A stretch of 32,000 bases of DNA from Candidatus Electronema aureum (GTDB taxonomy: Bacteria; Desulfobacterota; Desulfobulbia; Desulfobulbales; Desulfobulbaceae). This document shows, in pieces, positions 7,930 through 28,703 of this stretch. The translations under genes were made by a program, and so were the position numbers. The stretch's first letter is position 1. Each line of letters begins with the position of its first letter. Below the pieces are notes generated by a model. It had not been told where the DNA came from and ran no database searches. It saw only the letters and a program-made list of their open reading frames with translations. The stretch lies in assembly GCA_004284765.1 (NCBI GenBank), contig NQJD01000008.1, forward strand, positions 64,490 through 96,489, given 5' to 3'.

Positions 7930-9036
7930 TTACCATCCTAATAAATTAAACACACATTCGTTTGCACTTACAGCATCTGCCAAGTTGGTTTGAAATTTAA
8001 AAAAAGATGAAAATATGCTACCCCATCCTGCTTCATATGAAATATTTATTTGTTTTCCGCAGAATTGGTATGTCGCAAATGTATTTGCTGCACCTATAAA
8101 ATTATTAATTAAAATTACATTTCCTATAAAAGGGAGTCTTGAGAGAGGAAACTTTGTTGAAAAAACAGAAACGGCATCAGAAATACAAGTTATAACTGAG
8201 GACATGTCGCAGTATGCTTCTTTATAGCTCTTTCCAAGATTTCTTTCTCCGCATATTTTATTTAAATATTCGTCAACAACAGGAAATTCTTGAGTAGATG
8301 CATTGTATTCTGTTCCAGAATTTAGCCTGTCTTGGCATTTTTTAAAAAAATCACTACTGTCATCTTGATATATTTCAGAATAATGTATCATTTTAGATAA
8401 AACCCCTAACCATCCACTCCATTTATACCACGCTTCAGAACATTCTCTATACCATTCTCTATAGCATTGACTGTTTTCGTCAACATGATCACAAAATCTA
8501 CTTGCGCTTGCAAGTGAATACAGGTAACTGCCATTGCCTGTATCATATCTGTTAACCTCGCACGCATAAAGCATATCTATATCATGCGTTGTTGTTACGC
8601 TGCAATTATTAATGAATAATTGCATTATTTCGAAATAATCATCACTCTGTCTTATTAATTTTTCAAAATAGCTTGACATATAATGAGACTCGCAGAAAGA
8701 AGTAAGTCTTTCGATAGATTCGTAATTTTCTTTGTAATTTTGTATGAAAAATTCTTTATTATAATTTAGAACAACTGGAATTCCAGCTACGCGTTTTGAT
8801 AATGGAAATATCAAACAAAAAGAAAGACTTTCTATTTTATTTCTTATTTCTTCTTCTTTTCTTCTTCTCATCTCTTTATCCTTATCGTCAAAAAATGCTG
8901 CACCCGCAGAAGAGACTAATAGGACAAACAGGAAGGCAAGAAAAAATGAGCAGCGGGACAGGAAAGATATAGACCGCAAAGACATGATCATTCTCCAAAA
9001 AAGAGTGTTACGGAGCGGACAAGCAGGACTTTTCAT
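7930..9036 (-). CDS. Hypothetical membrane-anchored or secreted Cys-rich protein in a low-GC segment
   Basis: A 368-codon ORF is unlikely by chance in very AT-rich DNA. It has an N-terminal hydrophobic segment (FFLAFLFVLLVSSAGAAFF), about 15 Cys, and many Tyr/Phe/Asn. No family was recognised. Confidence 0.6.
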   Translation of the reverse strand: MKSPACPLRNTLFWRMIMSLRSISFLSRCSFFLAFLFVLLVSSAGAAFFDDKDKEMRRRKEEEIRNKIESLSFCLIFPLSKRVAGIPVVLNYNKEFFIQNYKENYESIERLTSFCESHYMSSYFEKLIRQSDDYFEIMQLFINNCSVTTTHDIDMLYACEVNRYDTGNGSYLYSLASASRFCDHVDENSQCYREWYRECSEAWYKWSGWLGVLSKMIHYSEIYQDDSSDFFKKCQDRLNSGTEYNASTQEFPVVDEYLNKICGERNLGKSYKEAYCDMSSVITCISDAVSVFSTKFPLSRLPFIGNVILINNFIGAANTFATYQFCGKQINISYEAGWGSIFSSFFKFQTNLADAVSANECVFNLLGW

Positions 9037-9124: not shown

Positions 9125-11650
9125 CTACGCCTCCCTCACCCCCGCCTTCACAATCCTTACCAACTCCGCCTGCTCGTCCTTCAAGCCAAAGACCGCTGCC
9201 AGCACATCCCTTGGCCCGACACCCGCTTCAGCGCAGGGATGATAGAGATCAAGCAGCAGCCTGCCGCCTTCGCCCAGCTTTAGCTTCCTGACGAACTCCT
9301 TCAGATCAAACTCACGGCTTTTGCCCTTGCGGCGGCGTGCCAGCAAGAAGCGTTCCGCGACCTGAAAGGCGGCGATGCTGTCTCTTGCCTGCTCGGCATC
9401 CACGCCGTCCGGCAGCAGGCAGTCATAGCTGATGATCTCGTTGACCGGGGCCTTTTTCTTGGCAAAAGCAAGGGCAGTGATGGCCATGAAGCTCGGCAGC
9501 TGGCGGTTCAGCTCGGCCAGCATCTCTGCCGGGCGGCGGATGGGTTCAGCGAGATCAACCTCGAAGAACTCGATCTCGCTTTCCACTCCAACCGGCAAGG
9601 CCGGGCTGAAGGAGACCTTGGGCGTGGGATTGAAGCCCTGCGAGAAGAGCACCGGCAGCCCGGCTCGCTGCAAGGCGCGGAAGACGAGGTTGAGCAGCTC
9701 CAGATGACCAATGAAGCGGCCATCGCCAAGGCGGGAGTAATCGGCGCGATAGCGGAAAATGGTCGGCTGACTGTTCTTGTCGCGCTCTTGCTTATGAACC
9801 GCAGGCGCGGCGCTTGCTGCTGCCTCCTTTGGCGGATTGACCAACGGCCTGATGCTCTTGAAATCACAGAGGCCGCAGTTCTGGCAACCTTGGTTGCGGC
9901 AGTCCGGGGTATAGGCGCGCTCTATGGCCCGCTCGTATTCGCGCTCCAAGAAACCGCGGTCAACACCGCTGCTGAGGTGATCCCAGGGCAGGACTTCGCT
10001 GCGGTCGCGCTGGCGCAGGTAGAATTCGAGGTCAATGCCCGCCCGTTCCGCCGCCTGCTGCCAGCGGGCCAGCGAGAAATGCTCGTTCCAGCCGTCGAGC
10101 CGCGCTCCGTCCCGCCATGCCTCTTCCAATAAACGCGAGAGCCTGCGGTCGCCGCGCGAGAACACGCCTTCGAGCAGGCATTGCTCCGGGTCATGCCACT
10201 TCAGTTTGTAGCCCTTGGGCGGCAGCTTCTTCATCAGCCGCTGGATGCGCTCTTTCGACTCATCGAGCGAAATCTGGCCGCACCACTGGAACGGCGTGTG
10301 CGGCTTTGGCACAAATGTGGAGACGGCCACATTGATGTCCGCCTTCTTGCCGCTCGCCTCACGCCGCGCCCGCGCCGCCAAGTCAACTATCGCGTCCACA
10401 TCCTCCAGCGTCTCGGTGGGCAGGCCGATCATGAAATAAAACTTGAGCACGCTCCAGCCTGCATTGAAGGCATCACGGCAGCCAGCGAGCAAGTCGGCCT
10501 CGGTGATGCCCTTGTTGATCACCTCGCGCAGCCGATCAGTGCCTGCTTCCGGCGCGACCGTGAAGCCGGTCTTGCGCACACGCCTGATCTGGGCGATGAC
10601 CTCCGGCGTGAGCGTGCCAACGCGCATCGAGGGAAGGGAGATAGAAACGCGCTCCTCGGCAAAGCGGTCCATCAGCTTGGTCAGCAGCTCCGGCAGGCAG
10701 GAGTAGTCGCCAGTGGAGAGCGAGAGCAGGGCCAGCTCGCCAAAGCCGGAGTTCTGAATGCCCTGCTCGGCCAGCTGCATCACCTGCTCGACCGTGCGTT
10801 CGCGCACCGGGCGGTAGATCATCCCGGCCTGGCAGAAGCGGCAGCCGCGTGTGCAGCCCCGCGCAATCTCCACGCCGAGGCGGTCATGCACCGGCTTGAC
10901 CATCGGCACGAGTGGGCGTTCGAGCAGCTCGGTCGGCGGCAGTTGGGAAACAATGCGGCGGCGGATTGTTGCATAGCCCGGCTTGAGCGGGAGGACAGCC
11001 TTGAGCTGCTGGCCTTCATACTGTGGCGTAAAGAACGCAGGCACGTACACGCCCTCGATCGCCGCCAGCCGATGCAGCTTTGCGCTGCGGGACAAGCCTT
11101 CCTGCTTGGCAGCACGCAAGGCAGCGGCGATCTCCAGAATCACCTCCTCGCCGTCGCCCAAGACAATGGCATCGAAGAAGTCGGCCAGCGGCTCCGGGTT
11201 CATCGAGCAGGAGCCGCCGCCGATGACCAAGGGCGCGTCCTCGCCGCGCTCTGCCGCCCGCAGCGGAATTTGCGCCAGATCAAGCACGGTGAGGATGTTG
11301 CTGAAGCACAGCTCATAGGGCAGCGTGAAGCCGATGACATCGAAGGCCGCCAAGGGCCGCCGCGACTCCAGCGAGAAGAGCGGCAGCTTGTGGCGGCGGA
11401 GCTGCTCCTCCATGTCCGTGTCCGGGCAAAAGCAGCGTTCAGCAGCCAAGCCAGGCTCGCGGTTGAGGATATGATAGAGTATCTGCAAGCCTTGGTGCGA
11501 CGTGCCGATCTCGTACAAGTCCGGGAAGATGAGCGCGAAGGCGAGATCAACCGCCGCGTAATCAGGCCGCGCCGCGTGCAGCTCGCCGCCGATGTAGCGG
11601 CCCGGCTTGCGCACCAAGGGAAGGATGGAGTCGAGGGAGAGTGTATTCAT
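9125..11650 (-). CDS. B12-binding-domain radical SAM protein (TIGR03960-like) fused to a radical-SAM-linked DUF2344/TIGR03936-like domain
   Basis: N-terminus is LPLVRKPGRYIGGE. The CxxxCxxC motif is GCTRGCRFCQAG. The C-terminal part contains GRFIGHLELLNLVFRALQRAGLPVLFSQGFNPTPK. Confidence 0.88.
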   Translation of the reverse strand: MNTLSLDSILPLVRKPGRYIGGELHAARPDYAAVDLAFALIFPDLYEIGTSHQGLQILYHILNREPGLAAERCFCPDTDMEEQLRRHKLPLFSLESRRPLAAFDVIGFTLPYELCFSNILTVLDLAQIPLRAAERGEDAPLVIGGGSCSMNPEPLADFFDAIVLGDGEEVILEIAAALRAAKQEGLSRSAKLHRLAAIEGVYVPAFFTPQYEGQQLKAVLPLKPGYATIRRRIVSQLPPTELLERPLVPMVKPVHDRLGVEIARGCTRGCRFCQAGMIYRPVRERTVEQVMQLAEQGIQNSGFGELALLSLSTGDYSCLPELLTKLMDRFAEERVSISLPSMRVGTLTPEVIAQIRRVRKTGFTVAPEAGTDRLREVINKGITEADLLAGCRDAFNAGWSVLKFYFMIGLPTETLEDVDAIVDLAARARREASGKKADINVAVSTFVPKPHTPFQWCGQISLDESKERIQRLMKKLPPKGYKLKWHDPEQCLLEGVFSRGDRRLSRLLEEAWRDGARLDGWNEHFSLARWQQAAERAGIDLEFYLRQRDRSEVLPWDHLSSGVDRGFLEREYERAIERAYTPDCRNQGCQNCGLCDFKSIRPLVNPPKEAAASAAPAVHKQERDKNSQPTIFRYRADYSRLGDGRFIGHLELLNLVFRALQRAGLPVLFSQGFNPTPKVSFSPALPVGVESEIEFFEVDLAEPIRRPAEMLAELNRQLPSFMAITALAFAKKKAPVNEIISYDCLLPDGVDAEQARDSIAAFQVAERFLLARRRKGKSREFDLKEFVRKLKLGEGGRLLLDLYHPCAEAGVGPRDVLAAVFGLKDEQAELVRIVKAGVREA

Positions 11651-11712: not shown

Positions 11713-12273
11713 TTAAGGCAAGGTGTTCGCAGGATGCTTGACGTGGATCAGCTTGGTGGTGTCAAAGCCGCGCTGCCGCGCCTGCTCAATGAAACGGGCC
11801 AGCAGCTCCGGCTCCACGGTCGGCGTGCGCGCGAGCAGCCAGAGATAGGAGTGATCCGGGCCGGAGACAAAGGCGTATTGATAGTTCTCCTTGTCCAGCT
11901 CGAAGATGACGTAGGAGCCGTAGAACGGGCCGAAGAAGGAGACCTTCAGATAGCCGGTGCCCGGCTCATCGACAAAGAACGCCTTGCCTTCCGCCTCCTT
12001 CCATTCCCCTTTGGCCGTGAGGAAGCCGCGATTCCTGACCGCCACGCCGCCGCCGTCGCGTAACGAGTATTCAGCGGTAACGCGCTCCATGCCCCGCTCA
12101 AACGAGTGATCCAGCCGGGCGATCTCGTACCATTTGCCCAAGTAGCGGCTGAGTTCAAAGCCGCTCACCGGGCTGACATTCTTCGGCATCCCAAGGCAGC
12201 CGCCGAGCGTCAGGGCGGCAAGCAGGGAAAGGCATCTGCGCAGGTTCATTGGTTTCATCGGTGCTTGTCTCAT
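11713..12273 (-). CDS. blc: Outer-membrane lipocalin lipoprotein Blc
   Basis: Lipobox LTLGGC. Lipocalin signature YLGKWYEIARLDHSFERG, then YLKVSFFGPFYGSYVIFELD. The true start may be the internal MKPMNL at 12258. Confidence 0.88.
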   Translation of the reverse strand: MRQAPMKPMNLRRCLSLLAALTLGGCLGMPKNVSPVSGFELSRYLGKWYEIARLDHSFERGMERVTAEYSLRDGGGVAVRNRGFLTAKGEWKEAEGKAFFVDEPGTGYLKVSFFGPFYGSYVIFELDKENYQYAFVSGPDHSYLWLLARTPTVEPELLARFIEQARQRGFDTTKLIHVKHPANTLP

Positions 12274-12313: not shown

Positions 12314-12535
12314 TCACTTCCTTGTCAAAGGGTGCTGCAACTTCTCCATCTGATAAAGAATCTGCAAGCCTTGGTGCGATATGCCGATTTCGTACAAATC
12401 CGGGAAGATGAGCGCGAAGGCGAGATCAACTGTCGCGTAGTCAGGACGCGCCGCGTGCAGCTCGCCGCCGATGTAGCGGCCCGGCTTGCGCACCAAGGGG
12501 AGGATGGAGTCTAAGGAAAGGGCGGTGTTCATCAA
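12314..12535 (-). pseudogene. Duplicated 5' fragment of the radical SAM gene (first ~59 codons)
   Basis: 12351-12532 aligns with 11472-11650 at roughly 90% nt identity by eye, with one 3-nt indel. The ORF leaves homology after QGLQILY and stops after 73 codons. Confidence 0.7.
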
Positions 12536-12644: not shown

Positions 12645-14126
12645 CTACTCGTAACGGGCGGCCCAAATATCGTACTCGCTGATATCACGACCAAACATAT
12701 TGGGGCGGAAATCGTCAGTTTGGAGCCAGATGGCAAGAGCATTGCCCGCCGCATCAATCGCGATCTGAGGAACTTCCGCATTGTCTGCGTCGGTCGTGAT
12801 GGACTGGGCCTTCTCCCAGCCGCTGCCAAGGACATATCGACTGGCCCGGATATTGCAACCATTAACGACAATACCAGTTGGCTTGCTGCTGCACTGGCTC
12901 CAAACAGCAAGGGCATTGCCTGCTCTGTCGAAAGCGATCTTGGGATGATACGCATGGTTCATGGCAGCACCGGTTTCGATGCGCTGGGCCTTCTGCCAGC
13001 CGACATCTGCTGTGTAACGGTTGAACCAGAGGTTGGTCCGGTCGGCATCACGCTGACACTCGGACCAGACAGCAAGGCCATTGCCCGCTCCATCGAAGGC
13101 GACCTCAGGAGGTTCCGCACAGCCTGGTGCGCCGTTATTGATGCGCTGGGCTTTCTGCCAGCCGTTGCCTGCCACATAACGGTTGCTCCAGATATTATCC
13201 TCATGCCCGTTGTCGCGTTGCTGCCAAACAACAAGGGCGTTGCCAGCTTCATCCACAGCAATCTCGTGATTCGGACTTGCATTCTTCTTGATGATCTGTG
13301 CCTTCTGCCAGCCCTTGCCGACCTCATAGCGGTTAGACCAGAGATTTGTACACGTGGGATCTTCATCTTTCCCCCAGACGGCAATGGCGTTGCCTTTTTT
13401 GTCCATTGCAACTTTGAGAAGTTTTGGATGGACATTGACACCTATAACATCAGTGCCCCCAGCATCGGTCGCTATAAATTGGATATCACCCCAGCTTTTG
13501 CCTGACATGTAGTATTTAGCTATAATATTTCCTTCTAAAGTCCAAGCAACAACAACATTGCCTGCTTTATTCATTGCAATCCTGAGATCGGATACAGAAT
13601 TAGCATTTTTAGAATTGAATAAACCGTTAAAGAGGCTGGTCTCCTTGATTACCTGTGCCTCCTGCCAGTCTTTACCAGACTCGTAGCGATCAGTCCATAT
13701 TTTGCCACTCCGACTCGAAGCAACAATGGCATTTCCACGTCCATCAATTGCAACATTGGAATGGTATATGTCGTTGATTTGAATTGACCGAGCTGTTCCC
13801 CAGCCTCTGCCGGCCTTGTAACTATTGATCCACATATTTCTGCGGTCGTTGTCACTCTTCCACATATTTCCGCTGTTGTTGTCACTCTGATTCCAGAAAA
13901 CAATGACATCACCAGCCTCGTTGAACGAAACTTCGAGACTGTACTTTTCGGCATCATCACCAGCTTTGATATGTTTAGGAGCATGCCATGTCTTTTTATT
14001 CGCCGGTGCTGCCGGGGTGGTGCGGTCGAGCACATCAGCGGCACCGCCTGCTGGAACAGCAAGGCAGAGAGACGCAAGGATGGCCTTGCTGACAACGGTT
14101 CGGGCAAAGAAGGAGTTACGTCTCAT
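12645..14126 (-). CDS. Secreted protein with eight tandem ~45-60 aa repeats (propeller-like), family not recognised
   Basis: Signal peptide (AILASLCLAVPAGGAA). The recurring unit is p.IA.D..GNA.AVW....(variable)..W..RY..G.GW.KAQ.I, seen eight times. Confidence 0.75.
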   Translation of the reverse strand: MRRNSFFARTVVSKAILASLCLAVPAGGAADVLDRTTPAAPANKKTWHAPKHIKAGDDAEKYSLEVSFNEAGDVIVFWNQSDNNSGNMWKSDNDRRNMWINSYKAGRGWGTARSIQINDIYHSNVAIDGRGNAIVASSRSGKIWTDRYESGKDWQEAQVIKETSLFNGLFNSKNANSVSDLRIAMNKAGNVVVAWTLEGNIIAKYYMSGKSWGDIQFIATDAGGTDVIGVNVHPKLLKVAMDKKGNAIAVWGKDEDPTCTNLWSNRYEVGKGWQKAQIIKKNASPNHEIAVDEAGNALVVWQQRDNGHEDNIWSNRYVAGNGWQKAQRINNGAPGCAEPPEVAFDGAGNGLAVWSECQRDADRTNLWFNRYTADVGWQKAQRIETGAAMNHAYHPKIAFDRAGNALAVWSQCSSKPTGIVVNGCNIRASRYVLGSGWEKAQSITTDADNAEVPQIAIDAAGNALAIWLQTDDFRPNMFGRDISEYDIWAARYE

Positions 14127-14267
14127 CGCGTCACCTCAGGTGATAATTTTCAGCGGCACCGCCTGCTGGAACAGCAAGGCAGAGAGACGCAAGGATGGCC
14201 TTGCTGACAACGGTTCGGGCAAAGAAGGAGTTACGTCTCATCGCGTCACCTCAGGTGATAATTTTCA
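14036..14267. repeat. Perfect 115-bp tandem direct duplication (2 copies plus 2 nt) covering the SD, ATG and first 30 codons of the repeat-protein gene
   Basis: 14036-14150 is identical to 14151-14265 when read base by base. The following 'ca' also matches the start of the repeat. Confidence 0.9.
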
Positions 14268-22508: not shown

Positions 22509-22693
22509 GAAAATAAGGGATGCTGCTTATTAACTGAGCGGGGTGCCGAACTTTCTGGTTGGTGCGGGTAGATTTATCCCGCGCCGGAAAGTTGAGAAAA
22601 GCCACAGCCGTCGCGAGGCGGTGTCGGAAAGCCACGGGTCTCCATTTTGGAGACAGCCGGGTTGCCTGCTTCACATATACCAGGGAGGGTATC

Positions 22694-23386
22694 ATGAAAA
22701 CAACTCAAACAACATTAGGAGGAAAATCAAGTTTACAGAAAAGAATGACTGCGCTGGCCGGAATTCTGTTGGCCGCCGCCCTCGGTGCCTGCCAAGCCAA
22801 GCCGGAGTCTGCTCTTTCTGTCCCTCATGCCGACACAGTCAGCAATGCTGATCAAAGCGGCTGGATTTCATTAAGCAATGTGGTGTCGGAAGCTGAAGCG
22901 GCCACAGCTGCTCCTGCCGCCGGTTACGGAGGCAAAGGAACAGTTGATCCGGCAGCAATGGTGGCAGCGCATAATCGTTGGCGGACAAAAGTCGGTGTAT
23001 CATCCGGACTCAGGTGGTCGGACAAGCTGGCTGGCGTGGCTCAAGGCTGGGCGAATCAGCTGAAAAACGAAGGCTGCGCTATGTACCACAGCGGCAATGG
23101 CTACGGTGAGAACATTTACAAAGCCAGCGCACTGATGTGGTCGGATGGTCGTCGCGATTTACAGAAGAAAACACCGCAGCAGGTCACGGACAGCTGGGGC
23201 AGCGAAATCAAATTCTACGATTACGAGAGCAACAGCTGTAGCGGAGTCTGTGGTCATTACACCCAAGTAGTGTGGAAAAACACCCAAGAAGTCGGCTGCG
23301 CCATGTCGGTCTGTGGCGACAATTCGCAAATTTGGGTATGCAGTTACTATCCCGCAGGCAACGTAGTTGGTCGCAAACCGTACTGA
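22694..23386 (+). CDS. CAP/SCP/PR-1-like domain lipoprotein
   Basis: GGAGG lies 5 nt before the ATG. Lipobox ALGAC. CAP motifs: AAHNRWR..VGV, HSGNGYGENIY, CGHYTQVVWKNT.EVGCA, VCSYYPAGNVVGRKPY. Confidence 0.85.
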   Translation: MKTTQTTLGGKSSLQKRMTALAGILLAAALGACQAKPESALSVPHADTVSNADQSGWISLSNVVSEAEAATAAPAAGYGGKGTVDPAAMVAAHNRWRTKVGVSSGLRWSDKLAGVAQGWANQLKNEGCAMYHSGNGYGENIYKASALMWSDGRRDLQKKTPQQVTDSWGSEIKFYDYESNSCSGVCGHYTQVVWKNTQEVGCAMSVCGDNSQIWVCSYYPAGNVVGRKPY

Positions 23387-23556: not shown

Positions 23557-24183
23557 ATGATCACAAAGAAAACATTGAGCATTCTCCCTTCATCTTTTTT
23601 TCTCTCTATCTTCTGTCTTGCTGCCTGCGGCCAAACCCAGACCATCCGCGTGGATGTGTCTGCCGATCATCCTGACGGCGTTGTGCTGTTAGATGGGTAT
23701 TATGAAGAAACTGATACCTTTGCCGAAGGAGTAGGCACGGTTGATTCGACCGTGATGCTGGCCACCCACAACCGCTGGCGTTCTGAAGTCGGCGTTCCTG
23801 ATCTCGTTTGGTCGGAATCTTTAGCCCAAGCTGCACAAAGTTGGGCTGATCATCTGAGCAACAACGGCTGCTGCGCTATGTCTCACAGCGACAGCGGCTA
23901 TGGCGAAAATATTTACAAAGTCAGTGCCGTGGTTTGGTCGAACGGTCGCCGGGAAATTCAGAGCAGAAGTCCGCAGCAGATCGTTGACGGCTGGGCCAGT
24001 GAAGCCAAGGACTATGATTACGAAAACAACACCTGCAACGGCATTTGCGGTCATTACACTCAAATAGTCTGGCGTGACACCACAGAAATAGGTTGTGCAG
24101 TTGCCGTTTGCCCGGATAAATCGCAGATGTTGGTCTGCAATTACGCGCCGACTGGCAATGTTGAAGGGCAAAAACCGTATTGA
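23557..24183 (+). CDS. CAP/SCP/PR-1-like domain lipoprotein (tandem paralog)
   Basis: Lipobox CLAACG. Motifs: ATHNRWRSEVGV, SHSDSGYGENIY, CGHYTQIVWRDTTEIGCA, VCNYAPTGNVEGQKPY. Confidence 0.85.
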   Translation: MITKKTLSILPSSFFLSIFCLAACGQTQTIRVDVSADHPDGVVLLDGYYEETDTFAEGVGTVDSTVMLATHNRWRSEVGVPDLVWSESLAQAAQSWADHLSNNGCCAMSHSDSGYGENIYKVSAVVWSNGRREIQSRSPQQIVDGWASEAKDYDYENNTCNGICGHYTQIVWRDTTEIGCAVAVCPDKSQMLVCNYAPTGNVEGQKPY

Positions 24184-24379: not shown

Positions 24380-24408
24380 TTGATAAACTTGCCGCTTCGT
24401 GCTACAAT
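24380..24408 (+). promoter_or_regulatory. Candidate sigma70 promoter of the AAA+/FGE cassette (TTGATA-17-TACAAT)
   Basis: ttgata at 24380-24385, a 17-nt spacer, tacaat at 24403-24408. AAGGTGGA lies 7 nt before the ATG at 24499. Confidence 0.5.
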
Positions 24409-24498
24409 CTTTGTTCAGGCGGCTGCCACAAATCTGCGAGCCGCGCAAAACAAAACGTAATGTTTTCAATAAGAAAGCCGCCGAAAGGTGGATGAGAT

Positions 24499-25758
24499 AT
24501 GAACAGCAGTCATCATATACCCAAAAAAATCCGCGTAGCTCATCGGATCAAACTCGAGCGCTGCCAATCATGGGAGGAAGGCTTCCATGTTTTTGATGAG
24601 GAATCTGCCTTGGCTGTTGAAATGGCCTTGGCCACAGGTAGGCCCTTGTTGGTGCGTGGCGAGCCGGGCAGTGGCAAAAGCCAGCTGGCCCGCGCTGCGG
24701 CCCAAGAACTGAACCGCCGTTTCATCAGCGAGGTAATCACCTCTACCACTGAAGGCCAAAACCTGCTCTGGCACTACGATCCGGTGGCCCGCTTTCATGA
24801 GGCACAGATGTTGGCAGCAGAAGCAGCAGCCACGGCTCTTCGGCAGGAGAATTGGGAAGAGGATAACCAGGCTGATTCTGAAGAGATACCATCTGTTCCG
24901 CCGCAGCCAGAGGCTTTGAGTCGGAAAAAATCTATCCGCTATAAAAAGAAAAAAATCCTTCCGCAAAAACGGCAGCATCTGTTTCAAGCAATCAGTGCTG
25001 GTGCAGGCCGAGGCTTTTTGCCGGATCGAGGTAGTGCAGACCTGCATCCGGGCAACAGCATAAGTCCCGGCCCTTTCTGGTGGGCGATTGACTGCGTTTC
25101 CGCTCGGCAGCAGATCGGGCGATGCCGTTGGCCCTTGTATCAGCCGGGCTTTGATCTTGGCTTTTCGCTCGAAGAAGCGGCAGCGCAAGCTCAACGGGGC
25201 TTTGTTTTTCTGATCGACGAGATCGACAAGGCTGATTCTTCTCTCCCTAATGCTCTGCTGGAAGTGTTGGGCAACGGTGGCTTCCACGTGCCGTTGCTCA
25301 ATCAGACGGTGCGAGTGCCGCCCGGCTTTGCTTCACCGTTGGTGATTATCACCACGAACGAAGAGCGCGAGCTACCGCCCGCCTTTGTCCGCCGCTGTTT
25401 GGTGCTGCATCTCCGCTTTGATGATGAACATTATTTACGTACGTGGTGGAATCGGCAAGTAACGCAGCGGGCCGATCAGTTTCATCCTGACCGGGCCTTA
25501 GTCAAGTGGTTAGCCGAGCGCGGCGAACTGCATTTTGAACACGTTTTTTCCGTCAGAGTCCGAGAAAAAGCAGCCGAGCTGCTGGTGCGTGATCGGCGTG
25601 AGGCGCAACAGGCTGGGTTGATCAAACCGGGCCAAGCGGAATATTTAGATTTGCTTCGGGCGTTGCGGAATATGGCGGCGGCGAGCAGCGAGCAGCAACA
25701 GCTCGCCTTGCTGGAGCAAATCAGTCCCTACGTTTTCATCAAAGAAGCGCAGGAATGA
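24499..25758 (+). CDS. MoxR/AAA_5-type AAA+ ATPase with a long insertion between Walker A and Walker B
   Basis: Walker A is LLVRGEPGSGKSQLA (aa ~51-64). Walker B is VFLIDEIDKAD (aa ~236-246). Then IITTNEERELPPAFVRRC. The stop overlaps the next start (ATGA at 25755-25758). Confidence 0.85.
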   Translation: MNSSHHIPKKIRVAHRIKLERCQSWEEGFHVFDEESALAVEMALATGRPLLVRGEPGSGKSQLARAAAQELNRRFISEVITSTTEGQNLLWHYDPVARFHEAQMLAAEAAATALRQENWEEDNQADSEEIPSVPPQPEALSRKKSIRYKKKKILPQKRQHLFQAISAGAGRGFLPDRGSADLHPGNSISPGPFWWAIDCVSARQQIGRCRWPLYQPGFDLGFSLEEAAAQAQRGFVFLIDEIDKADSSLPNALLEVLGNGGFHVPLLNQTVRVPPGFASPLVIITTNEERELPPAFVRRCLVLHLRFDDEHYLRTWWNRQVTQRADQFHPDRALVKWLAERGELHFEHVFSVRVREKAAELLVRDRREAQQAGLIKPGQAEYLDLLRALRNMAAASSEQQQLALLEQISPYVFIKEAQE

Positions 25759-27767
25759 GCAGACCGCAGACCGTTAGCCGAGCTGATCTGCTTCGTCTGC
25801 TTGCTGCACAGCCGGACGTATCGCTACCCGCAGCCGCTCGACTGGCTGGGTATCAGCCAGCAAGAGAGCCGTCGGGTACGTTGCAAGCGCAAGAAAAAAC
25901 AGCAGACCAAGAAGCAAGCTACGAAACCGAACCTGCGGCAAGAAAGGAACTTTTTCCTGCTGAACACTTCTGGCATTTACAGAGACGCGAGCAGCTTCAG
26001 TCTGCGCAGAACCGTAGAAAAGGCAGTGAATTGCCTGCCAACCTGCGCCAGTTTCGTCCTTTGAGGGCAAAGGAATTGCAGTGTTCTGCTTCATCAACAA
26101 ACCACCCTACCCTGCTGCCCCTGCCCGTTCGCAAAAAAACAACTGTATCTGAGTTAGTTACTGCTGCTGCGCAATTTCGGCCTTTACCACGCAATTTCGA
26201 GAATACGCCTATCCAGCCTGTGCAAAAATCTGCTGCCGCTTTTGCGCTGGATATGCTGCGAGCCGGTCAGAATTCCGTTTGGTTAGAACAATTTTTGCTC
26301 CGCCTTGTCCGCACTTGGTTTGATCGTCGGAAAGATGCTACGTTGCTCGCTTACATTAAGCACGTGCTGGAGTTTCTGCCAGAAACAGTCTATCGGCAGC
26401 ATGATATTGCCAGCTTGCTTTACGGTATCGCTCACCGAGATATGCTGCGGCAGGGCGCAGTCATTCCGCCGCAATTTCGGCCTGAAGCAGTGTTGCAGAT
26501 CGCGCAAGAACCGCTGCCGTCTTTGCCTTGGCTGCTGATTCAAGAAGGCGAAGAGATTTTTCTTATCAACAGCCCGGAAACAGGCATTTGTCTGCTGAAA
26601 GGCAGCCGCATAGCCGCGTTAGAATTAAGTGCGGACATTCTCCTGCTGCATCGTGACGGACAGACAGAAACTGTGCCGGTGCAAACGTGGCAAGCTCTCT
26701 GCGCTTTGAATGATGCAGAAAACTTTTACCTTCAGACCTTGACCGAAAAGCTGCACATTCACACTTGCGCCCGACCGACGTGGGCAACGATGATCGGGAG
26801 AAATAGCCGCGAACTCTTTGCCGAAATTCTCTGGTTGGGCCGCAGCTATCGTCTGTACTGGCAGACACCGAGTGCCGATGCTGACGACATCGGGCAGTGG
26901 AAAAACTGCCACGGCCCGGTCGATACCGACCGCTTTGGCCTTGCCGCCTATATTGGCTTTTACGGCAAAGTGATGCAGCGGTTCCGCTGGTTAGAGCCAA
27001 GCCGCTTTCTCATGGGTTCACCAGAAGATGAGCCAGAGCGGGAGGCTTGGGGGAAGGAGACGCTGCACGAGGTGCGATTGAGTAAGGGCTTCTGGTTCGC
27101 TGACACCGTTGTCACCCAAGAGCTGTGGCAATTCGTGATGCGTAGCGATAATCCGGCGAAATTTCAAGGTCACGAGCTACCGGTTGAGAATGTAAGCTGG
27201 TTGGAGGTGCAGCATTTTCTTCAGCGGCTTAATGCGATGGTGCCGGGCCTCAACGCCCGTCTGCCCACCGAAGCAGAATGGGAGTATGCCTGTCGGACAG
27301 GTACAACCACGCCCTTTTCTTTTGGCAGTCAAATCACGCCAGAGCAGGTCAATTATCACGGCGCATTTCCTTATTGTTCCGGACAGAAGGGGATAAATCG
27401 CAGGCAGACAGTGCCGGTGAAAAGTCTGCCTGCCAATGCTTGGGGCTTGTATGAAATGCACGGCAATCTCTGGGAATGGTGCCAAGATTGGTGGTTAGAC
27501 GATTTAGGCCATGATGCAGCTCTTCATCCGCAAGGGCCGGAGAGCGGTGAATTCCGTGTAGCGCGTGGTGGCTCGTGGTTTCTTGGTGGCAAGGGTGTGC
27601 GCTCCGCTGTGCGTGGTCGCTTTGCACCCAATTTCCGCAATGACCGCATCGGGTTTCGCATCGCCCGTGATCACGAAACCACAATGGAAAGCAAAGTCGC
27701 GCCGCCTGCGGAAGAGATACCTGCGCCAGAGGTTTCCTTTCTGCGCCGTATTTTTGGCAAAAACTAA
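25755..27767 (+). CDS. Two-part protein: unrecognised ~430-aa N-terminal region plus a C-terminal FGE-sulfatase (SUMF1/DUF323, C-type-lectin-fold) domain
   Basis: The C-terminal domain contains FRWLEPSRFLMGSPEDE...HEVRLSKGFWFADTVVTQELW...PVENVSWLEVQHFLQRLN...RLPTEAEWEYACRTGTTTPF...WGLYEMHGNLWEWCQDW...RGGSW...IGFRIARD. Confidence 0.85.
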   Translation: MSRPQTVSRADLLRLLAAQPDVSLPAAARLAGYQPAREPSGTLQAQEKTADQEASYETEPAARKELFPAEHFWHLQRREQLQSAQNRRKGSELPANLRQFRPLRAKELQCSASSTNHPTLLPLPVRKKTTVSELVTAAAQFRPLPRNFENTPIQPVQKSAAAFALDMLRAGQNSVWLEQFLLRLVRTWFDRRKDATLLAYIKHVLEFLPETVYRQHDIASLLYGIAHRDMLRQGAVIPPQFRPEAVLQIAQEPLPSLPWLLIQEGEEIFLINSPETGICLLKGSRIAALELSADILLLHRDGQTETVPVQTWQALCALNDAENFYLQTLTEKLHIHTCARPTWATMIGRNSRELFAEILWLGRSYRLYWQTPSADADDIGQWKNCHGPVDTDRFGLAAYIGFYGKVMQRFRWLEPSRFLMGSPEDEPEREAWGKETLHEVRLSKGFWFADTVVTQELWQFVMRSDNPAKFQGHELPVENVSWLEVQHFLQRLNAMVPGLNARLPTEAEWEYACRTGTTTPFSFGSQITPEQVNYHGAFPYCSGQKGINRRQTVPVKSLPANAWGLYEMHGNLWEWCQDWWLDDLGHDAALHPQGPESGEFRVARGGSWFLGGKGVRSAVRGRFAPNFRNDRIGFRIARDHETTMESKVAPPAEEIPAPEVSFLRRIFGKN

Positions 27768-27769
27768 CC

Positions 27770-28537
27770 ATGCCCCGTCCTTCTCTTTCCCCCGTCCATT
27801 TCCCTTCGCCTTGGGCCTCCAGCTGGGGCGAGGATGCCTGCGGTCTCTGGCTGACGTTCAGTCTGAACGGCATTCGCCAGCTTTTCCGCTGGATCAGGCC
27901 GGGCAGCTTTCTGATAGGCGCACCGGAGGAAGAGACGGAAGGATATTTCCTGCCAAGTAAAGAACCCCAGCATGAGGTGCGACTACCGCAGGGCTTTTGG
28001 TTAGCCGAAACCGTTGTCACGCAAGAACTCTGGCAGATGGTGATGAAAAGCAATCCCAGCGGCTTTAGCGGGCCGCAGCATCCGGTTGAGCGCGTGAGTT
28101 GGCTTGATGCGCAGCACTTTCTCCAGCGGTTGAACGCCCTGATTTTAGGACTAACCGCCCGTTTGCCTACCGAAGCAGAATGGGAATATGCCTGCCGAGC
28201 CGGTACGACAACGCCTTTCTCGTTTGGCGAAGAAATCACGCCAGAGCAGGTTAATTACAATCCTAATGATGAAGAGGGAAAGAAGCTCTACCGTAGGCAA
28301 ACCGTGCCGGTGAAAAGTCTGCCAGCCAACGCTTGGGGACTTTACGAGATGCACGGCAATGTCTGGGAATGGTGCCAAGATGCTTGGCAAGATACGTTAG
28401 AGCAGGAGCGCGGCGATCTGCGTGTTGTACGCGGTGGCTCTTGGGTCTGCGGGGCCGGATATGTTCGCTCTGCTTGCCGCGACCGATATTATGATGATTA
28501 TACCAACGGCAGCATCGGTTTCCGACTGGCGATATGA
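27770..28537 (+). CDS. Stand-alone FGE-sulfatase (SUMF1/DUF323) domain protein; tandem paralog of the preceding C-terminal domain
   Basis: It has the same motif series (FRWIRPGSFLIGAPEE, HEVRLPQGFWLAETVVTQELW, RLPTEAEWEYACRAGTTTPF, WGLYEMHGNVWEWCQDAW, RGGSW...IGFRLA). The ATG lies 2 nt after the upstream stop and has no SD. Confidence 0.85.
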   Translation: MPRPSLSPVHFPSPWASSWGEDACGLWLTFSLNGIRQLFRWIRPGSFLIGAPEEETEGYFLPSKEPQHEVRLPQGFWLAETVVTQELWQMVMKSNPSGFSGPQHPVERVSWLDAQHFLQRLNALILGLTARLPTEAEWEYACRAGTTTPFSFGEEITPEQVNYNPNDEEGKKLYRRQTVPVKSLPANAWGLYEMHGNVWEWCQDAWQDTLEQERGDLRVVRGGSWVCGAGYVRSACRDRYYDDYTNGSIGFRLAI

Positions 28538-28687: not shown

Positions 28688-28703
28688 TGGCATGGCTGTT
28701 GCA
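28688..28703 (+). promoter_or_regulatory. Sigma54 (-24/-12) promoter
   Basis: TGGCATGGCTGTTGCA matches the consensus TGGCAC-N5-TTGC(A/T) with correct GG/GC spacing. It lies about 40 nt upstream of the ATG at 28742. Confidence 0.6.

Follow-up and report, generated by a model that had tools for sequence, protein, structure and literature searches.

A cable-bacterial MoxR ATPase and lectin-fold cassette as a probable reduced descendant of a ternary conflict system

Here we describe a three-gene cassette of the cable bacterium Candidatus Electronema aureum, located in a stretch of 32,000 nucleotides (contig NQJD01000008.1 of assembly GCA_004284765.1, positions 64,490 to 96,489 of the forward strand), which we call the window. 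The genes, g1, g2 and g3, encode a MoxR-like AAA+ ATPase and two proteins with FGE-sulfatase domains of the C-type lectin fold, and an earlier note, made from the sequence alone, had read them as a candidate NTPase-driven sensing or conflict cassette. Our comparison with homologous loci suggests that the cassette is probably a lineage-fixed, reduced descendant of a MoxR-vWA-lectin-fold ternary conflict or sensor system, of the iSTAND type of Kaur et al. (2020), which we equate with the clade 5A loci of Doré et al. (2024). This judgement concerns what the cassette is and where it came from; what it does today is far less certain. The parent kind has already been described computationally, and the reduced cable-bacterial form is new; the cassette is unmentioned in the cable-bacteria literature.

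The three genes and their borders

All three open reading frames (ORFs) lie where the earlier note had placed them (Table 1). The sequence ATGA at 25755-25758 forms the overlap of g1 and g2, and the TAA stop of g2 (27765-27767) is followed by CC and then by the ATG of g3 at 27770, which leaves a gap of 2 nt with no Shine-Dalgarno sequence before g3, as read from the sequence of the junction. The promoter, the upstream hairpin and the downstream sigma54 site described in that note were likewise recovered. The sigma70-type site is no more than a match to the consensus, and the region shows no enrichment of promoter-like sites in general (5 observed vs 3.0 +/- 1.7 in shuffles). The hairpin is an upstream boundary or terminator, and the sigma54-type site belongs to the next operon (nifN-like, nifB) and marks the downstream boundary; both are outside the function of the cassette. 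The genes around the cassette are different in each of five cable-bacterial genomes, and the three genes therefore behave as a self-contained unit, in support of the discrete unit first proposed.

Table 1. Positions of the cassette genes, their motifs and the bordering signals in the window
Feature	Position	Strand	Remark
Stem-loop	24221-24250	+	directly 3' of upstream CAP-domain gene; 13-bp stem, -19 kcal/mol, z = -4.9 vs 200 shuffles
Sigma70-type promoter-like site TTGATA-17-TACAAT	24380-24408	+	consensus match only, 10/12 positions; TG before -10
Shine-Dalgarno sequence AAGGTGGA	24485-24492	+	6 nt 5' of g1 ATG; read from sequence
g1, MoxR-like (AAA_5) AAA+ ATPase, 419 aa	24499-25758	+	Pfam AAA_5, 54.5 bits
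g1 Walker A, GEPGSGKS	24658-24681	+	aa 54-61
g1 first cable-specific insert	24814-25044	+	aa ~104-182
g1 Walker B, FLIDEIDKAD	25207-25236	+	aa 237-246
g1 sensor-1/Arg finger TTNEERELPPAFVRRC	25351-25398	+	aa 285-300
g1 second cable-specific insert	about 25444-25503	+	aa ~316-335
g2, 670 aa	25755-27767	+	ends in FGE-sulfatase/C-type-lectin-fold domain
g2 variable-region-equivalent segment RGGSWFLGGKGVRSAVRGRFAPNFRNDRIGFRIA	27564-27665	+	scaffold matches template repeat/variable region of L006 and L015
g2 C-terminal motif SFLRRIFGKN, putative amphipathic membrane-targeting helix	27735-27764	+	after Pro/Ala/Glu-rich linker
g3, 255 aa, FGE-sulfatase/C-type-lectin-fold only	27770-28537	+	Pfam FGE-sulfatase aa 41-254, E 8e-48
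g3 variable-region-equivalent segment	28430-28534	+	inside lectin-fold domain
Sigma54-type promoter-like site TGGCAT-N5-TTGCA	28688-28703	+	sole TGGCAY-N5-TTGCW match in window; 0.12 expected by chance

The assignment of g1 as a MoxR/AAA_5-type ATPase agrees with its Pfam match and with the motifs, all of which were located. Walker A, Walker B, sensor-1 and the Arg finger are intact, and the catalytic residues are invariant among the cable ATPases. The score against the bpMoxR model of Pfam was below cutoff (20.5 vs 27 bits), and the closest solved relative by sequence is the AAA domain of midasin (E 1e-6). A protein of Ca. Electronema aureum is 100% identical to g1. Relatives of the g1 ATPase number in the thousands; the cable type forms about 50 distinct clusters at 90% identity, spanning Electronema and Electrothrix, and CoxD-like ATPases beside VWA_CoxE genes are 45-50% identical to the core of the g1-type ATPase. 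Two inserts are specific to the cable bacteria, the first of which, between Walker A and Walker B, is long, charged and of low complexity with a KKKK/RKK patch. The NCBIfam identity 'MadB family ATPase' was considered and rejected: g1 scored 71 bits against a cutoff of 475, and all ATPases tested scored 58-127 bits, as befits a distant relative only. No paper connecting MadB with MoxR was found in the literature. A PADLOC check of the locus, which the earlier note had proposed, recognised no known defence system: in PADLOC-DB v2 the best match of g1 was mad8 (23.5 bits), g2 and g3 had none, and no system matched the cassette.

The g2 protein opens with the N-terminal motif common to its family, VSRADLLRLLA...LAGY (aa 7-33). 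A low-confidence linker (aa 34-165) then stands at the place of a vWA-like region of its relatives, followed by a 'middle' module made of a helical bundle and a beta-sandwich (aa 166-385) and by the FGE-sulfatase/C-type-lectin-fold domain (aa 385-642; Pfam FGE-sulfatase match aa 415-638, E 3e-41). In an AlphaFold2 (AF2) model of aa 1-412, with a mean predicted local distance difference test score (pLDDT) of 70.6, the bundle and the subsequent sandwich were confidently predicted (aa 160-340, 85-95), aa 9-30 formed two helices at moderate confidence, and aa 37-67 and 112-156 were poorly predicted. The protein ends in a tail with the motif (S/L)(F/L)LRR(I/L/F)FG(K/R)x behind a Pro/Ala/Glu-rich linker in 21 of 22 cable orthologues, and two non-cable homologues have similar C-terminal ends. 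The membrane-targeting sequence of E. coli MinD is KGFLKRLFGG (PMC5471200); the end of g2 shares with it the pattern F-L-basic-basic-L/I-F-G after a flexible linker, but the resemblance is one of a short motif, without homology of the proteins.

With g3, which begins with the beta-extension motif FPSPWASSWGED, both downstream genes carry FGE-sulfatase domains, and neither product contains a DxSxS motif of a metal ion-dependent adhesion site (MIDAS), both as previously noted. The g3 protein aligns with Streptomyces and human formylglycine-generating enzyme (FGE) and with Treponema TvpA (E about 1e-17). In an alignment to 2q17/6muj, the catalytic Cys pair of FGE (C-x4-C in the RGGSYLCHDSYC segment) is incomplete in g3, which retains the first Cys only and is deleted where the second would be; both are missing from g2, and likewise from g3 of Electrothrix. 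Thus g2 and g3 share with TvpA (2y3c) and with true FGEs (2q17, 1y1e) the fold family and a C-terminal RGGSW...GFR scaffold, but differ from them in having no complete catalytic pair and no diversification in the cable lineage. Because the pair is incomplete, and because the same surface is targeted in relatives by diversity-generating retroelements (DGRs), the evidence argues for a lectin-fold domain that binds a ligand and is not an enzyme.

Homologous loci and the canonical operon

Loci were gathered by exact look-up plus a scan of one genome per species, and are designated by L numbers where needed. Word-indexed searches with the N-terminus of g2 had returned only 17-20 close relatives; an exhaustive search gave at least 578 representatives. 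Wherever a full-length family ATPase was present and the locus could be tested, which was so in 26 loci, a g2-like protein carrying an FGE-sulfatase domain at its C-terminus follows the ATPase. The 26 loci represent Gamma- and Betaproteobacteria, Myxococcota, Planctomycetota, Verrucomicrobiota, Acidobacteriota and cable bacteria. ATPase and g2 are mostly joined by an ATGA overlap, and a short FGE-only protein (g3) comes next in order wherever the contig is long enough, so that the MoxR-FGE-FGE order suspected from the single locus is kept throughout. The remaining 58 loci of the scan have a different, shorter CoxD-type ATPase beside VWA_CoxE genes. Additional FGE domains were seen in some relatives, as two or three in tandem within g2 (L008:4160-8041, L017:7766-11218) or as a third short FGE-only gene 5' of the effector gene (L007:7385-8194, L012:4194-5009, L022:7154-8065).

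Upstream, an ORF (308-1053 aa) lies against the start of the ATPase or overlaps with it in 20/20 testable non-cable loci. Its N-terminus is TIR_2 in four loci, Trypsin_2 with or without Trypco1/Trypco2 in five and Metallophos in three, and PNP_UDP_1, a DUF676 esterase and TCAD9 were found as well, while the C-terminal 200-250 residues are mutually related. The TCAD9 match ('ternary complex associated domain 9', E 8e-29) lies in the upstream component of a Holophagae relative (L014:7672-9984) and is a direct link between the family and the ternary systems that Kaur et al. defined. A tblastn match (E 6.7e-4) suggested that the middle module of g2 shares an adaptor with the upstream effector proteins, at the C-terminus of the latter, but this was ruled out, as hmmsearch was empty in both directions and hhalign gave a probability of 0.05%. 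Two g2 homologues have unusual additions: one carries TIR_2 inserted between the middle module and the lectin-fold domain (L011:10989-14222), and another, in alignment A7, carries Response_reg and Trans_reg_C, which hints at a transcriptional output in some variants.

Several non-cable loci have an HRDC gene, an RVT_1 reverse transcriptase (RT) and a template repeat (TR) between g2 and g3. The variable regions (VRs) are the 3' ends of both FGE domains, and the templates are rich in AAC codons. Mismatches between TR and VR fall at template adenines in 13/14 and 16/17 cases in L006, 17/18 in L007, and 20/22 and 16/18 in L015. Because the differences are almost only at template adenines, the retroelement-bearing relatives are genuine DGRs acting on two targets, and the retroelement of the canonical operon is shown, at the level of sequence, to hypermutate the presumed ligand-binding face of both lectin-fold domains. 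Their accessory gene encodes an HRDC protein directly before the RT and is not of the Avd type (L006:10740-11246, L007:14073-14570, L089:6382-6870).

The g2 homologues of 21 non-cable loci are 720-1290 aa long. Alignments of 21 and then of 52 homologues revealed a conserved N-terminal motif, (V/I)(S/G)RADLLRxL...LG(F/Y), a second conserved region, hhhhDxSxxLxPFWxD ... VLILSDLG ... VLxPxP, and as a third feature a helical segment followed by a beta-rich segment. Within the second region two residues, D185 and D259, lie at the ends of two predicted strands and are nearly invariant in non-cable homologues. When this region was compared by hhalign with the CoxE-type vWA, we obtained E 2.7e-4 and a probability of 42% with 19 sequences, and E 2.4e-3 and 12% with 139 sequences. 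Both alignments have the same register, placing the first Asp on the DxGGS MIDAS strand and SDLG on the Asp of strand 4; a profile search of PDB sequences for a vWA gave no match. The 'domain-less' extension of the relatives is likely a degenerate CoxE-type vWA. The canonical operon reads: a variable effector fused to the shared C-terminal module; the MoxR ATPase; a protein of RADLLR helices, probable degenerate CoxE-type vWA, middle module and lectin-fold domain; often HRDC, RT and TR; and the short lectin-fold protein.

The cable-bacterial form and its surroundings

Five cable loci were compared, those of E. aureum, Electronema sp. PJ, E. halotolerans, a metagenomic Electronema and Electrothrix communis. 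The abutting upstream effector ORF is absent in 5/5, and so are the RT, the HRDC gene and the template repeat. The 32-kb window contains no third repeat copy or template repeat, no RT or HRDC detectable by tblastn, and no match to an RT hidden Markov model (HMM). An HMM built from the vWA-like region of the family scored 86-256 bits in 21/21 non-cable g2 proteins and at most 0.4 bits in 5/5 cable loci with filters off; Electrothrix has at this position a low-complexity stretch of about 190 residues, and in Electronema the region is simply missing. The earlier statement that the ATPase has no vWA partner therefore holds for this locus, whose g2 scored 0.2 bits, but probably as a secondary loss, as the relatives have a region that aligns weakly, in a consistent register, with the CoxE-type vWA. 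In a neighbour-joining (NJ) tree of the ATPases the cable clade was monophyletic and nested among complete systems, with a sister group that includes L089, a locus with Trypco1, Trypsin_2, a 940-aa g2, HRDC, RT and template repeat. Because of this nesting, the losses are most simply read as derived, the effector, vWA-like region and retroelement having been lost in the common ancestor of the cable bacteria.

What was kept is being maintained. Pairwise dN/dS within Electronema was 0.10-0.16 for g1, g2 and g3, values indicating that the three cable genes are under purifying selection and are not a decaying remnant. The scaffold RGGSW-xxx-G-xx-R-S/C-A-x-R-...-IGFR is common to the VR-equivalent segments of the cable bacteria and the hypervariable segments of their relatives. 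Conservation of the g2 segment was 0.84 among 22 cable orthologues vs 0.83 in the rest of the domain, and that of the g3 segment 0.78 vs 0.81; the g2 segment is nearly unchanged from Electronema to Electrothrix. The former variable sites are thus frozen in cable bacteria. The two ATPase inserts and the C-terminal tail of g2 are new conserved features of this form.

The neighbours of the cassette are of various kinds. Directly 5' of it in the window lie tandem paralogous CAP/SCP-domain proteins (22559-23386 and 23557-24183, 68-70% nucleotide identity), both with lipoprotein-like N-termini, which are not kept beside the cassette in other cable bacteria. In Ca. Electronema halotolerans a PF00884 sulfatase gene (L087:80-1723) is found 1.6 kb 5' of the cassette and in none of the other cable loci, and is probably a coincidental neighbour.

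Farther away, the window contains a perfect tandem duplication of a 115-nt unit (14035-14267, 2.0 copies, 100% identical), which spans the ribosome-binding site, start codon and signal-peptide-like N-terminus of a minus-strand ORF (12645-14126) and is either a very recent event or an assembly artefact. That ORF encodes 493 aa in six or seven internal repeats of 150-174 nt (about 55 aa) and has no Pfam match. A 368-aa ORF at 7930-9036 (minus strand), also without a Pfam match, forms an island of 33% GC in a region of roughly 55% GC, and because of this composition may be foreign DNA. Direct repeats of 173 nt, 91% identical, lie at 11469-11641 and 12348-12520 on either side of a lipocalin gene (11713-12273, minus strand); a radical-SAM/DUF2344 gene (9125-11650) has the first copy as its 5' end.

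Named systems, rival explanations and significance

The iSTAND-type MoxR-vWA ternary systems (Kaur et al., 2020) have, directly downstream of the ATPase, a vWA protein with a CoxE-like N-terminus, mostly an FGS C-terminus, and a pair of conserved Asp residues, one ending strand 1 and the other strand 4. The third core component, a VMAP or iSTAND protein with an N-terminal effector, lies upstream of the ATPase, and in the iSTAND-type systems its N-terminus is TIR or trypsin. The window shares with these systems a MoxR-clade ATPase followed by a protein that ends in an FGS/lectin-fold domain. The relatives share with them also an upstream third component, likened by its position and its N-terminal effectors (TIR, trypsin or others), a putative CoxE-like N-terminal and vWA-like region, TCAD9/Trypco1/Trypco2 neighbours, and occurrence in multicellular or filamentous bacteria. 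In contrast, the window has no third component, vWA or effector, and the VWA family of Pfam was undetected in any family member.

The clade 5A ('DGR8-type') DGR loci of multicellular bacteria (Doré et al., PNAS 2024, PMC10907252) consist of a MoxR ATPase, a C-type lectin (CLec) target whose N-terminal extension is long, and a short CLec target. The extension was reported to have no predicted domains and to stand 'in place of a vWA-domain', and Trypco1, Trypco2, TIR and peptidase genes were found near these loci. The window agrees with this layout, with a MoxR-like ATPase directly 5' of a CLec protein of long extension plus a short CLec-only protein, and homologous loci with true TR/VR pairs were recovered here. 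It differs in having no RT, HRDC accessory gene or template repeat, and in VR-equivalents that are conserved and not hypervariable. The arrangement, which the earlier note could not assign to any named system, can thus be mapped, as it matches the clade 5A loci and fits the iSTAND-type systems. Its suggested place among NTPase-centred conflict systems gains support from relatives with TIR, trypsin, Metallophos, PNP, DUF676 or TCAD9 effectors and DGRs. The pairs CoxD-CoxE, RavA-ViaA, CbbQ-CbbO and NorQ-NorD also have an AAA_5/MoxR-type ATPase translationally coupled to a partner; unlike in these classical MoxR-vWA pairs, the partner in the window has no vWA or MIDAS and ends in a lectin-fold domain.

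Some of the iSTAND systems were inferred by Kaur et al. to work beside the membrane. In the cable form, g2 would be held at the inner membrane face by its MinD-like C-terminal amphipathic helix, and a hexamer of the ATPase may dock on g2 via the N-terminal helices, which were kept despite loss of the vWA-like region. As extrapolated from the literature on the parent systems, the lectin-fold surface would bind a ligand and the MoxR ring would use ATP to remodel its partner and pass the signal. With fixed surfaces, g2 and g3 would be remodelled upon binding of one conserved ligand. The output would not be a linked suicide effector, and the partner, if any, would be encoded elsewhere or replaced.

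Several points weigh against the ancestry proposed here. The vWA assignment in the relatives rests on weak profile-profile scores (42% and 12%), and Pfam found no VWA family in 73 g2-family members (sets of 6, 21 and 52 run). An AF2 model of an Oceanospirillum homologue, from a 9-sequence alignment, was too poor for a fold search (mean pLDDT 43), with alternating strands and helices in the vWA-like region. The NJ tree carries no support values. The g2 middle module had no Foldseek match in PDB or BFVD and is by this test a predicted orphan fold, and the putative membrane-targeting motif is a resemblance of 7-8 residues. The absence of the effector or of RT and TR covers the 32-kb window, so that a copy acting in trans is possible elsewhere in the E. 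aureum genome. Moreover, the whole family appears to be known from computation alone.

Other explanations of the cassette deserve consideration. It could be a working anti-phage or conflict system, in which the ATPase, together with the two lectin-fold sensors, recognises an invader molecule and switches on an effector whose gene lies elsewhere in the genome. The immune-type context of the family (TIR, trypsin, PNP and TCAD9 effectors; DGR diversification) and the different sites of the cassette in different cable genomes are in line with this, as is the recruitment of effectors in trans via adaptor domains described by Kaur et al. However, there is no effector in or beside any of the five cable loci, PADLOC matched no system, the sole candidate for an adaptor shared by g2 and the effectors failed, and the vWA-like domain, the presumed coupler of the ATPase, is gone. 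The binding surfaces are also frozen across two genera, which is unusual for a receptor in an arms race, and we consider such a system unlikely, if still worth keeping in view. Of the conflict cassette proposed at the outset, membership in a conflict-system family stands; a working cassette is unproven, and the effector is absent from this copy. An active DGR target, with RT and template repeat elsewhere in the genome, is the explanation to which we give the least credence. Kaur et al. did note that template repeats may lie elsewhere in the genome, and the C-termini of g2 and g3 retain the exact VR scaffold RGGSW...R.A.R...IGFR, but their VR-equivalent residues are conserved from Electronema to Electrothrix, differences between g2 and g3 fall at all codon positions and not only at template-adenine sites, and the 32 kb yielded no third copy, template repeat, RT or HRDC.

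MoxR ATPases are known maturation factors, and g1 might be a chaperone that matures metal-dependent FGE-family enzymes, as in NorQ/NorD or CbbQ/CbbO, the alternative offered in the earlier note. The strong FGE-sulfatase matches and the one genome with a sulfatase gene 1.6 kb upstream would fit, but g3 has no second catalytic Cys and g2 neither, in function the nearest analogues are DGR variable proteins, TvpA (2y3c) among them, and an active site could not stay conserved on this surface, which is hypermutated in relatives. Nor is a client-enzyme gene conserved beside the cassette, as the flanking genes differ in all five cable loci, and this explanation is disfavoured as highly improbable. Hardly more credible is an inert remnant on its way to pseudogenisation. 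The loss of three components and the shrinkage of g2 from 860-990 aa to 670 aa would be expected of it, but no cable genome sampled has a broken copy of any of the three ORFs, the ATPase motifs do not vary, the ATPase clusters spread over Electronema and Electrothrix, and new conserved features, the inserts and the tail, were acquired; together with the low dN/dS, the selection data have already largely refuted it.

For the reduced descendant of a ternary system that we favour, we tentatively suggest the following history, as a possibility that is more doubtful than the ancestry itself. A hypervariable antigen receptor diversified by a retroelement may have been frozen and domesticated at the origin of the cable bacteria, where it shed its suicide effector, vWA coupler and mutagenesis module and gained inserts and a membrane tail. 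At the cytoplasmic membrane of these filaments, which are multicellular and conduct electricity, it may now play a conserved role that is specific to the lineage, such as sensing a self or envelope-derived ligand and not an invader.

Few predicted immune-like sensors of multicellular bacteria are as elaborate as the parent systems, and a hidden degenerate vWA, if true, would connect the clade 5A loci with the MoxR-vWA ternary systems. The cable form is a natural minimal version, made up of a motor and a pair of binding proteins, fixed to one specificity and free of a toxic effector, and could be the member of the family that is easiest to express, to localise and to use for identification of a ligand. 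It clearly exemplifies how an immune-type module was reduced yet retained under selection in one multicellular lineage, and its importance would rise if the frozen receptor has a lineage-specific role in cable bacteria.

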